64,000 nt of DNA, taken from assembly GCA_018396535.1 (NCBI GenBank), contig JAGTQC010000003.1, positions 64,001-128,000 of the forward strand. The letters are read 5' to 3'. Source of the stretch: Candidatus Bathyarchaeota archaeon. Its GTDB lineage: Archaea > Thermoproteota > CALKCG01 > B24 > DRYS01. Below, piece by piece: positions 1-57,360 of the stretch (positions are counted from its first letter, which is position 1; each line of letters begins with the position of its first letter). The notes under the pieces were generated by a model. The model saw only the letters and a program-made list of their open reading frames with translations, was not told where the DNA came from and ran no database searches. Position numbers and translations under genes: made by a program.

Positions 1-1912
<1,912 letters not shown>

Positions 1913-55165: not shown

Positions 55166-56980
55166 TTACTCCTCCTCGATAGTAGCGGCTGTATAGTAGT
55201 ATTCACCCATCTCCTTCTGTATCCTATCCAGTCTCGAACCCTCCTTATTAGCTCTAGGCCTATACGTTTGTCTATCCCTTCTAAACGTTACTCCAAGCTC
55301 CTTGAGGAACATATTCATACCACTCCTCATATCCATAGGCTGATGCCCGTAACCATCGACTCCAGGTATACCTGAGAATACCATAAGCCTATCAGCTATG
55401 AAATCTTGGACTAGTATATCATGCTCGACGACGAAGGCAACCCTACCGAGATTTTCTACGATCCTACGAACAGCTCTAGCCATAGCTAACCTCTCCTCTA
55501 CATCTAGATATGCGCTAGGCTCATCGAGTAGGTATATATCAGCATCCATGGATAAACATATAGCTATAGCTAGCTTCTGAAGCTCACCGCCGCTTAGATC
55601 TGATACCCTCCTATCTAAGATCTTATCCAATCTGAAGGGTCTATATATCTCCTCTCTGAAGAAGCTGGACTCCATCCTATCGCCTAGAGTCTTCCTCAAT
55701 AATACTTCTACAACCCCATCGTAATCCCCGGATATATACTGAGGCTTATAACTAACCTTAACTCCACCTGGTAGGGCATCCCCCTCGTCAGGCTTCTCCA
55801 ACCCGGCTAGAAGCTTAACGAACGTAGTCTTACCGATACCATTCGGTCCTAGTATACCTATAACCTCGCCTCTACGTATGAATCCAGGTTCAACTCTCAG
55901 AGTGAATCCTCCAAGCTTCTTAACCATGAAGCCCCAGCTATACTCTATATCGATAGACTCAGCTACCTGGGTAGGTGGTTTAACCTGGAATCTTATAGGT
56001 TGACTCCTAAACCTTACATTATCGCTTGGAATATATCCTTCGAGAAACATGTTTATCCCATCTCTAACAGCTCTAGGATAGGATACTATACCGTATACAC
56101 CTGGATCACCATATAGAACCGATATCATATCAGACATGTAATCCAATACTATCAGATCATGCTCAGCTACGACTACCATAACATCCTGTTTAGCTAGCCA
56201 TCTGATAACCCTAGCTACCTTAATCCTCTGACGTACATCTAGATAGCTTGAAGGCTCGTCGAATATGTATACATCAGCATCTCTACATACAACCGCTGCT
56301 ATAGCAACCCTCTGTAGCTCTCCACCGCTAAGTACATCCACCCTTCTATCGATAACTTCTCTAAGCTCTAGGATCGATACGATATAATCCATAACGCCCC
56401 GCTCATCTAGCTTAGATAGGAGTCTACTAGCTTCGCCCTTAAACACTCTAGGTATAGCATCTATATACTGAGGCTTATACGCTACTCTAAGATTACCCGA
56501 GGCGAGTTTAGCGAAGTAGTCTTTAAGAGATGTACCTCCGAAGTACTCTATTATACTATCCCAGTCTGGCGGATCACCCTCCACTACTCCTAGGTTAGGT
56601 TTAAGCTTACCTGCAAGTATACGGAGGGATGTAGATTTACCTACACCATTCTTACCTACTAGACCTAGTACGGTAGATCTAGCTGGTATAGGTAGTCTGA
56701 ATAGTTTAAACCCGTTAACACCATATCTATGGATACATTCACCTTCAAGCTCTCCTGGAAGATTAACTATCGATATAGCTTTAAACGGGCATTTATTAAC
56801 ACAGATACCGCATCCTATGCATAGCTCCTCAGATATTATAGGCTTACCCTTATCATCCACCTTGATAACTTCGATCTTATTCCTAACGAGTGGGCATAGA
56901 CGTCTGCATAGTAGTCCACAATCTTCTACACGGCAGCTATCTCTATCTATTACAGCAATCCTGTTAGTCATAGCCGACAC
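55166..56980 (-). CDS. rli: Ribosome recycling ATPase ABCE1/RLI
   Basis: Two Fe-S motifs, two NBDs (GKNGVGKS, GPNGIGKT, LSGGELQ x2), TFRRD...RPRANK. Confidence 0.97.
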   Translation of the reverse strand: MSAMTNRIAVIDRDSCRVEDCGLLCRRLCPLVRNKIEVIKVDDKGKPIISEELCIGCGICVNKCPFKAISIVNLPGELEGECIHRYGVNGFKLFRLPIPARSTVLGLVGKNGVGKSTSLRILAGKLKPNLGVVEGDPPDWDSIIEYFGGTSLKDYFAKLASGNLRVAYKPQYIDAIPRVFKGEASRLLSKLDERGVMDYIVSILELREVIDRRVDVLSGGELQRVAIAAVVCRDADVYIFDEPSSYLDVRQRIKVARVIRWLAKQDVMVVVAEHDLIVLDYMSDMISVLYGDPGVYGIVSYPRAVRDGINMFLEGYIPSDNVRFRSQPIRFQVKPPTQVAESIDIEYSWGFMVKKLGGFTLRVEPGFIRRGEVIGILGPNGIGKTTFVKLLAGLEKPDEGDALPGGVKVSYKPQYISGDYDGVVEVLLRKTLGDRMESSFFREEIYRPFRLDKILDRRVSDLSGGELQKLAIAICLSMDADIYLLDEPSAYLDVEERLAMARAVRRIVENLGRVAFVVEHDILVQDFIADRLMVFSGIPGVDGYGHQPMDMRSGMNMFLKELGVTFRRDRQTYRPRANKEGSRLDRIQKEMGEYYYTAATIEEE

Positions 56981-57015
56981 CTAGAATGATTCCGCTATAG
57001 GTGAATGATAGTGGA

Positions 57016-57030
57016 AAGGGGAAAAAAGGT
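57016..57030 (-). terminator. Pyrimidine/oligo-T terminator after the Glu/Trp micropeptide
   Basis: Reverse strand ACCTTTTTTCCCCTT about 35 nt after the stop codon. Confidence 0.5.
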
Positions 57031-57061
57031 AACGGAAGGAGTGGAAGGTTGGGGGGCTAAG

Positions 57062-57169
57062 CTACCACTCCTCCTCTTCCTCTTCCTCCCACTCTTCCTC
57101 CTCCCACTCCTCTTCCTCCCATTCCTCCTCCCATTCTTCCTCCTCTTCCTCCTCTTCGAATCTGAACAT
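57062..57169 (-). CDS. 35-aa Glu/Trp micropeptide MFRF-E8-W-E3-W-E4-W-E4-W-E7-W (not in ORF track)
   Basis: ATG at 57169, TAG at 57062; GGAGGTG SD 7 nt upstream; BRE/TATA at 57220-57233; the triplet phase of GAG/GAA/TGG is kept throughout. Confidence 0.8.
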   Translation of the reverse strand: MFRFEEEEEEEEWEEEWEEEEWEEEEWEEEEEEEW

Positions 57170-57219
57170 GATCTAACACCTCCCCCTTAGCGGGGCTAAA
57201 GAAGCATCCCCACCGCTAG

Positions 57220-57233
57220 TTTAAAAACTTTTT
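57220..57233 (-). promoter_or_regulatory. BRE/TATA promoter of the micropeptide gene
   Basis: Reverse strand AAAAAGTTTTTAAA. Confidence 0.6.
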
Positions 57234-57284
57234 GATCATGAACGATCGCCATACATTCCCTCTCAATCTAAACTATACTAGTAT

Positions 57285-57360
57285 GGGATTGGGGTGCTTA
57301 GCACACTCAAGATCCCGCTCATCAGGATCGCAAGGGCCAGAGCTGCCATCGCACCCCGAG
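57285..57360. ncRNA. Candidate structured small RNA, class unknown
   Basis: GC-rich intergenic block closed by GGGGTGC/GCACCCC, with an internal GATCC/GGATC hairpin and CTGATGA on the minus strand. Confidence 0.4.

Follow-up and report, generated by a model that had tools for sequence, protein, structure and literature searches.

A glutamate/tryptophan microprotein family of Thermoproteota, often encoded upstream of the ribosome-recycling factor ABCE1

The window considered here, a stretch of 64,000 nucleotides from a Candidatus Bathyarchaeota archaeon (contig JAGTQC010000003.1), harbors on its minus strand an open reading frame (ORF) of 35 codons, hereafter the micro-ORF, which lies upstream of the gene for ABCE1 and encodes the residues MFRF followed by 26 Glu and 5 Trp. 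The micro-ORF is a real gene under strong purifying selection, constitutes a transcription unit of its own with a TATA box, a Shine-Dalgarno (SD) sequence and an oligo-T end, and belongs to a Glu/Trp microprotein family that is undescribed and widespread in Thermoproteota (a phylum in the sense of GTDB). The explanation that best covers the data as a whole—a trans-acting polyanionic microprotein linked to translation—is given even chances; the data show the anatomy of the gene, purifying selection on its peptide, its distribution and its synteny, and that the ORF is translated, that its product acts in trans and which partner it binds are what we infer.

The micro-ORF and its coding constraint

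The peptide, MFRF-E8-W-E3-W-E4-W-E4-W-E7-W-stop, can be read directly from the sequence and is exactly the one described in the first-pass annotation of this region. Glu accounts for 74% of its residues, Trp is spaced along the chain, Lys is absent, and the C-terminus reads ...EEEEEEEW. The gene opens with ATG TTC AGA TTC, employs a mixture of GAA and GAG codons for Glu, and encodes its five Trp by TGG. The transcription and translation signals previously proposed for it, namely a TFB-recognition element (BRE) with TATA box, a GGAGGTG SD sequence and an oligo-T tract, are all present (Table 1); the T6 tract is a probable archaeal oligo-T terminator, possibly a leaky one. A scan of the region for bacterial-type promoters and terminators came back empty, as expected for an archaeon, and is not relevant here. 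The next gene downstream encodes ABCE1, the ribosome-recycling ABC ATPase with an N-terminal 2x[4Fe-4S] domain. A distance of 81 nt to this gene had been reported, which is correct for a GTG start at 56980 (MSAMTNR...), but comparison with orthologues favors the ATG at 56971 (MTNRIAV...), 90 nt away, because the orthologue consensus is MxRVAVLD and an AGGTG lies 7 nt upstream of this codon.

The source assembly (Bathyarchaeia; 1.41 Mb, 41% GC, 14 contigs) was translated in all six frames, and the tract within the micro-ORF is the only acidic run of at least 10 residues in the genome; together with its conservation, this places the ORF well outside what chance would produce. In two further genomes of the genus, the micro-ORF is found between matching neighbors, a 2-hydroxyacid dehydrogenase gene upstream and ABCE1 downstream. 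The encoded peptide is identical in all three copies, and the pairwise DNA differences between them (9, 16 and 11, or 36 in total) are without exception third-position exchanges between GAA and GAG; the stop codons TAG, TAA and TGA occur at one shared position, and the flanks are just 64–87% identical. Within-genus comparisons in five lineages, confined to pairs of the same length, yield 61 synonymous versus 1 non-synonymous codon changes. Across the 56 distinct peptides of the family, Glu is encoded by 1315 codons and the remaining all-purine codons, those for Lys, Arg and Gly, number just 51; what is constrained is therefore Glu and not purine content. The claim that selection acts on the peptide, as opposed to a microsatellite being propagated, has thus received strong support, and we are highly confident that the micro-ORF is truly coding and under selection.

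Table 1. Features of the micro-ORF locus and of comparable loci. Positions refer to the window, or to the named locus where one is given.
Feature	Position	Strand	Basis or remark
Microprotein gene, 35 codons plus TAG	57062..57169	-	ORF list; same peptide in two same-genus genomes; members across Thermoproteota
Start codon ATG	57169-57167	-	
Final codon TGG	57067-57065	-	
Stop codon TAG	57064-57062	-	
Archaeal promoter, about 55 nt 5′ of the ATG	57220..57234	-	read directly
TATA box TTTTTAAA	57227..57220	-	read directly
Purine-rich BRE-like CAAAAAG, 5′ of the TATA box	57234..57228	-	read directly
SD sequence GGAGGTG, 7 nt ahead of the ATG	57183..57177	-	read directly
T6 tract in C/T-rich spacer, begins 35 nt past the stop	57027..57022	-	read directly
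ABCE1, next gene downstream	55166..56971	-	ORF list; orthologue identity
Antisense 61-aa Leu/Phe/Pro ORF	57005..57190	+	ORF list
Small hairpin AGCGG.GGGG ... CCCCGCT	57189-57217	-	
Structured RNA candidate, about 66 nt	57291-57358	-	
TFS/RPB9-like ribbon gene, L069	2438-2713	-	
TFS/RPB9-like ribbon gene, L075	1289-1597	+	
TFS/RPB9-like ribbon gene, L007	1756-2040	+	
Orphan ABC ATPase upstream of micro-ORF, L005	~590-1330		same strand as micro-ORF
Orphan ABC ATPase upstream of micro-ORF, L018, L059, L063			same strand as micro-ORF
f26 ribbon-tail protein, L065	2768-3022	-	
f26 ribbon-tail protein, L066			
f26 ribbon-tail protein, L081	2774-3043	-	

Distribution and common features of the family

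A blastn comparison of the locus with 40 relatives matched the purine tract in many genomes, and each match proved to be a similar short ORF. A DNA pattern search for EEEWEEE had matches in 220 of 400 genomes of Thermoproteota, compared with about 7 for a reversed-pattern control. Outside this phylum the pattern was encountered in 4 of 251 genomes from the phylum of Methanosarcina and in 1 of 66 from a third archaeal phylum, where the matches are pieces of large proteins. About 100 loci were extracted, giving the 56 distinct peptides mentioned above. These measure 18–61 aa and share one pattern: Met, 0–11 non-acidic residues, and then runs of 3–8 Glu (with some Asp) split by single Trp or Phe residues, the commonest aromatic spacing being 5. 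Of the 56 members, 17 have Phe and 14 have Ile or Leu directly ahead of their first acidic run, and in 53 the run begins at residue 2–10. The last residue is Trp in 44, Phe or Tyr in 6 and another residue in the remaining 6; the non-Trp endings comprise F, Y, L, M, V and E, with Glu in just 2. Frame-breaking length variation, which the first-pass annotation had named as evidence against a gene, was not encountered among the relatives: over the whole range of lengths the frame is retained, with an aromatic residue before the stop as the typical ending.

The signals around the ORF recur as well. A TTTAAA or TTTATA box is found 45–55 nt upstream of most homologous micro-ORFs, SD sequences of the GGAGG/GAGGTG type recur 5–10 nt before the start, and 45 of 59 family loci, whether linked to ABCE1 or not, have a run of at least five T no more than 70 nt from the stop, with a median offset of 24 nt. 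The window's gene displays every feature by which the family is defined, that is, a promoter of its own, an SD sequence, an oligo-T tract, purifying selection on the Glu/Trp frame and an aromatic residue followed by the stop. Among named relatives, the closest is a metagenome-assembled genome of an uncultured Candidatus Bathyarchaeia archaeon, which encodes the same peptide and an ABCE1 that is 87% identical.

The strict EEEWEEE pattern undercounts the family, and a search that started from ABCE1 was carried out in four archaeal families. An acidic/Trp micro-ORF was found upstream of ABCE1 at 15 of 16 loci in f21, where it is of a divergent EEDW flavor and the genomes measure 1.4–3.0 Mb, and at 10 of 10 loci in f12; none was found at the 12 loci of f5 or the 9 loci of f16. 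Likewise, an acidic ORF lies upstream at none of the outgroup loci related by ABCE1, which are mostly from Euryarchaeota.

Linkage to ABCE1 and gene neighborhoods

A pattern search for short E-W ORFs and their linkage to ABCE1 (rli), as the first-pass annotation had suggested, confirms the linkage for the majority of loci but not for all. ABCE1 lies downstream of the micro-ORF on the same strand at about 40 of about 62 family loci, being the next gene in 32, with a gap of 49–130 nt, and the second gene in 8. The window's ABCE1 is 46–87% identical to the ABCE1 genes that follow micro-ORFs elsewhere. Genes for THUMP, Sua5/YrdC and Cgi121 proteins recur upstream of the micro-ORF. At least 11 archaeal families, by contrast, contain unlinked copies: in 14 genomes from 11 families the sole copy is either separated from ABCE1 by more than 20 kb or placed on a different contig, and these 14 genomes have no acidic ORF within 1 kb upstream of ABCE1. 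The neighbors of unlinked copies vary and include genes for MoeA, NfeD, glutamate dehydrogenase, NadE (NAD synthase), an HhH-GPD glycosylase and fucose isomerase, and at several such loci the next gene is convergent. Intermediate arrangements also occur. The micro-ORF is divergent from ABCE1, at a distance of about 1.5 kb, in two genomes (G018 and G098), and in G126 it lies 1.4 kb upstream of ABCE1 with two genes between. One genome (G027) carries two copies (L052 and L053), an 18-aa version directly upstream of ABCE1 and an unlinked 22-aa version that precedes a DUF1805 gene.

In one archaeal family (f26), the Glu/Trp tract does not form a microprotein of its own; it constitutes the C-terminal tail of an 85–90 aa protein with a LysW-like zinc ribbon (CPxC...CPxCG). 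The tail comprises 45–50 residues of Glu and Trp and ends in W, and the gene is the only one there that encodes EEEWEEE. It is unlinked to ABCE1 and located after a gene for a PmbA/TldD-type peptidase. The ribbon matches PF21344 with 27.1 bits, at a cut-off of 27, and NF041070 with an E-value of 2e-9, which is under the cut-off of that model. A further protein in which a ribbon is combined with an acidic-aromatic tail is encoded outside Thermoproteota: an ORF of at most 89 aa at L113 (G639:C103, in the phylum of Methanosarcina) starts with a CxxC zinc-ribbon-like segment and has an acidic tail with Phe, Trp and Tyr (…EEDFEEEEEFEEEEEWEEEEYDYDYDEY).

Two other genes accompany the micro-ORF in part of the loci. 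A protein of 92–103 aa that combines one TFS/RPB9-like zinc ribbon at the N-terminus with an acidic C-terminus is encoded between micro-ORF and ABCE1 at 8 loci selected by the pattern, from several archaeal families, and at all 10 of the f12 loci found by way of ABCE1. In one genome in which the micro-ORF is divergent from ABCE1, this gene has stayed beside the micro-ORF. In several lineages, moreover, an orphan single-cassette ABC ATPase of about 245 aa precedes the micro-ORF on the same strand; it resembles the nucleotide-binding domains of ABCE1, and the gene order is ABC ATPase, micro-ORF, ABCE1.

Searches of databases, literature and RNA data

A Pfam scan of the peptide at E-values up to 10 returned no family, and NCBIfam returned none either. 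A profile built from 35 members found no match among 5.8 billion proteins, a result that is probably owed to composition-bias filtering, and no match was obtained when the family was searched as a profile against the PDB. Ten exact family peptides were all missing from a collection of 15 billion proteins; annotation pipelines and gene callers therefore miss the family. The ESM Atlas does contain the window's peptide letter for letter, and its look-alikes at 0.80 are unnamed. In the literature, no paper describing this family was found. As for RNA, one metatranscriptome contig spans positions 56790-57026, i.e., the 5′ end of ABCE1 up to the T6 tract, and three public raw-read RNA runs contained nothing of the source organism. 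A complex prediction from the alignments of ABCE1 and the peptide scored 0.00, which is evidence neither for nor against binding.

Proposed role of the microprotein

The peptide probably acts in trans. It would be a fully acidic and probably disordered chain of 35 residues with a Trp every 4–6 positions and an almost invariant Trp at the C-terminus. Such a chain could serve as a multivalent ligand of the 'acidic run plus aromatic anchor' type, whose Glu runs would lie on basic surfaces and whose Trp residues, the free one at the C-terminus among them, would fill hydrophobic pockets with their side chains. The near-invariance of the C-terminal Trp argues for a specific pocket and against an effect of bulk charge. 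Among possible targets, the translation apparatus is tentatively favored on account of the recurrent position of the gene just upstream of ABCE1 across many archaeal families. One candidate is ABCE1 itself, possibly its patch near the first nucleotide-binding domain (NBD1), which binds the acidic/hydrophobic aP1 tail of the ribosomal stalk as well as the eIF3j N-terminus of eukaryotes; another is the small subunit, on which ABCE1 stays after splitting. With regard to expression, the T6 tract probably ends most transcripts, and ABCE1 would be supplied by read-through or by a weak promoter in the 90-nt spacer. Read-through of the T-tract is suggested by the short spacers with an SD sequence before ABCE1.

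Synthesis of such a chain may pose a difficulty of its own. N-terminal acidic runs are reported to destabilize translating ribosomes, an effect that is counteracted by bulky residues just before the run (10.1101/2021.02.02.429294; see also PMC12673854). The MFRF ahead of the acidic run, together with the periodic Trp, may allow the ribosome to finish the acidic chain; the Phe-rich N-termini and periodic Trp of the family would suit a peptide that has to be completed as well as a leader that is tuned. A more specific version of the proposal, and an unlikely one, holds that the microprotein is a dedicated ribosome-recycling cofactor of archaea which binds the NBD1 patch of ABCE1 or the ABCE1-bound 30S subunit and tunes the ATPase or the release of ABCE1 before initiation. 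If true, it would be an archaeal functional counterpart, or even a forerunner, of the acidic eIF3j N-terminus.

Several observations weigh against a trans-acting microprotein linked to translation. Synteny with ABCE1 is frequent and not universal, so the partner may be other than ABCE1. The stalk tail of the source genome (…KEEEKEEALEGLAALFG) is unlike the peptide, and with Trp about every 5 residues a helix would not have one hydrophobic face. That archaea synthesize the chain efficiently is an assumption, since in bacteria and eukaryotes translation reportedly aborts on poly-acidic chains of this N-terminal kind. The RNA depth seen on the purine tract stems from partly fitting reads of other organisms, that is, from cross-mapping.

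Alternative explanations

The alternative that survives best, albeit rather unlikely in our estimate, is a trans-acting polyanion whose target is unrelated to ABCE1, the neighborhood of ABCE1 being a convenience of co-expression. Much like DSS1/Sem1 or prothymosin-alpha, it could mimic nucleic acids or chaperone basic proteins that bind DNA or RNA, such as those of chromatin or the ribosome; it could also buffer Mg2+ or polyamines. The bare composition of the peptide, Glu with spaced Trp, accords with such functions, the gene has been retained at unrelated positions in many lineages, and the fusion to a LysW-like zinc ribbon of the acidic carrier type shows the tract to function as an acidic tail of a generic kind. 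Yet synteny with ABCE1 recurs in many archaeal families and survives rearrangement—directly adjacent, with one gene between, or divergent within 1.5 kb—which exceeds what a random housekeeping neighbor would display. The first-pass proposal, in which the peptide would mimic or bind basic components of translation, is plausible.

According to a second alternative, the micro-ORF is a cis-acting leader (uORF) for ABCE1 and the peptide a by-product. Translation of the poly-acidic run would destabilize or stall the ribosome, by intrinsic ribosome destabilization (IRD) as in bacterial MgtL, or terminate slowly at the W-stop, and the occupancy of ribosomes near the T6 tract would set the extent to which transcription or translation carries on into ABCE1, thereby establishing a feedback on recycling capacity. 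The layout of the window agrees with this idea, which had already been raised in the first-pass annotation: the ORF precedes ABCE1 on the same strand at 90 nt with the T6 tract between, and its last codons can pair with a CCACTCCTTCC box directly before that tract. Many archaeal families share both the 49–130 nt gap and a run of T5-6 located 10–35 nt past the stop, several ABCE1 genes have an SD sequence, and gaps of 52–62 nt leave scant room for a separate promoter. In addition, the early start of the acidic run in 53 of 56 members coincides with the positions at which IRD is maximal (10.1101/2021.02.02.429294). Other members of the family do not conform. At least 11 archaeal families have copies unlinked to ABCE1, some of them before a convergent gene, which nevertheless keep the W-stop and the T-tract; in G018 and G098 the two genes are divergent; at 8 loci a zinc-ribbon gene separates them; some linked loci have a TATA-like box for ABCE1 itself; and the f26 tract forms the end of a larger protein. 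The strict conservation of the whole peptide, including its last residue, exceeds what an IRD trigger needs. A hairpin plus T6 attenuator was rejected as a family feature, the hairpin formed by ORF end and spacer having a median z of -0.16 over 43 loci; its occurrence in the window arises from the juxtaposition of a purine tract and a pyrimidine spacer. Given unlinked, divergent, gene-interrupted and fused copies along with a conserved whole peptide, a pure leader role is improbable and cannot be the main one of the family; a contribution in cis at linked loci is possible.

The weakest alternative—that there is no gene, the polypurine/polypyrimidine tract being open by composition (as H-DNA or an SD-rich RNA element) or belonging to an antisense ORF product—can point to a purine tract that leaves all three forward frames and the antisense frames open by default, scores as a degenerate tandem repeat of 9–15 nt and holds many GGAGG words, but it is close to refuted by substitutions restricted to the third position of the Glu frame, by the rarity of the Lys, Arg and Gly codons that a purine-only constraint would also permit, and by a start, SD sequence and aromatic-stop ending kept in frame through all length variants. 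The antisense Leu/Phe/Pro ORF was rejected as a real product, its peptide varying freely between the genomes of the genus.

Comparison with known systems

The trans-acting microprotein can be set beside several small acidic proteins and leaders. The acidic/hydrophobic C-terminal 18-mer of aP1 and the N-terminus of eIF3j bind a similar patch of ABCE1 near NBD1 (PMC6125642, PMC7780240). Like the microprotein as proposed here, the tail of aP1 (P1/P2 in eukaryotes) is a flexible acidic stretch with hydrophobic or aromatic anchors at its C-terminus, and it has been tied functionally to ABCE1, binding both NBD1 and the translational GTPases (PMC6125642); the multiple copies of aP1 per ribosome parallel the multiple EEEW units of the microprotein. 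The two differ in that aP1 has about 105 aa and a dimerization domain, whereas the microprotein has no domain and no Lys and uses Trp. The true aP1 of the source genome is encoded at G000:C10 (53.4 bits) and its tail is a mixture of Glu and Lys ending in ...EALEGLAALFG; the microprotein neither matches PF00428 (Ribosomal_60s) nor contains a C-terminal motif of the GLxxLFG type after a Glu/Lys-rich hinge. The parallel to the aP1/ABCE1 patch is an analogy and not a sign of membership, there being no detectable homology.

The N-terminal acidic segment of eIF3j contains Trp. The N-terminus of eIF3j/Hcr1 is acidic and disordered, as the microprotein would be, and it contacts ABCE1 near the first nucleotide-binding site, aiding both splitting and the 40S-bound state (PMC7780240). 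In contrast, eIF3j is a protein of about 30 kDa that forms dimers; it has a helical bundle, and its C-terminal tail lies in the mRNA channel. The resemblance is compositional only; Pfam and NCBIfam searches gave no eIF3j match for the microprotein, which at 35 aa is too short for the helical-bundle core. Archaea are not known to have an eIF3j, which leaves a niche. DSS1/Sem1 (PF05160) is also very small and hyper-acidic, with aromatics within its acidic runs; it wraps the basic grooves of its partners and is described as a DNA mimic. It differs by its length of about 70–90 aa and by having two distinct motifs in place of a repeat. DSS1 is not known from archaea, nor are its partners (PCI proteins, BRCA2) known from these genomes, and Pfam at E-values up to 10 gave no match to the DSS1_SEM1 profile, with the proviso that composition-bias filters could mask a weak match.

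Leaders of the MgtL type share with the micro-ORF a short length, an N-terminal acidic run and a position ahead of another gene, and bulky residues before the run modulate ribosome stability in them (10.1101/2021.02.02.429294). Such leaders always act in cis and need alternative RNA structures, whereas the microprotein family has its own terminator, lacks a constant downstream gene in many lineages and has no conserved RNA switch; the 5′ position that is obligatory for an IRD leader is found in the window and at about 40 of about 62 loci, and not in at least 11 archaeal families or in the divergent arrangements. Finally, LysW/ArgW (PF21344, NF041070) is a small acidic protein whose acidic tail has a Trp near the C-terminus. 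LysW needs its C-terminal Glu (EDWGE) as an attachment point and requires a zinc-ribbon domain. The window's peptide has no ribbon, the PF21344 domain being present only in the f26 fusion proteins, and it ends in Trp, which is the last residue of most members, instead of an EDWGE-type Glu; no lysX-type gene was seen next to the micro-ORF of the window.

Other features of the locus

Two further elements were noted upstream of the micro-ORF. A small hairpin between the TATA box and the SD sequence sits about where the micro-ORF transcript should begin; its GGGGATGCTTCTTTAGCCCC core is kept in two genomes of the genus, with one loop C>T in L003, and its folding energy is no better than that of shuffled sequences. 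The other element, a structured RNA candidate (GGGGUGCGAUGGCAGCUCUGGCCC...GAUGAGCGGGAUCUUGAGUGUGCUAAGCACCCC), is located after the dehydrogenase gene and ahead of the promoter of the micro-ORF. This candidate is 85–95% identical across the order and occurs in other genomes at loci unrelated to the micro-ORF; its closing stem includes 3 pairs with compensatory changes in 9 sequences, and its minimum free energy is -34.1 kcal/mol (z -2.6). The candidate gave no Rfam match and no tRNA call, and an Rfam search of the region as a whole was equally without a match.

Significance

ABCE1 is an essential protein of all archaea and eukaryotes whose loading, activation and release are still being worked out. 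A gene that is conserved across a phylum, has been missed by annotation and travels with ABCE1 would extend a machine thought to be fully catalogued, and the sequence evidence suggests an unrecognized small player in protein synthesis. The family also illustrates how length cut-offs and low-complexity filters can conceal conserved genes. In experimental terms, it offers a convenient handle, a synthetic peptide of 20–60 residues with built-in Trp fluorescence, and the microprotein provides a test of whether archaeal ribosomes can cope with poly-acidic chains at the N-terminus, on which translation aborts in bacteria and eukaryotes. Even if its target differs from the one favored here, the peptide is still among the most extreme natural polyanions under selection.

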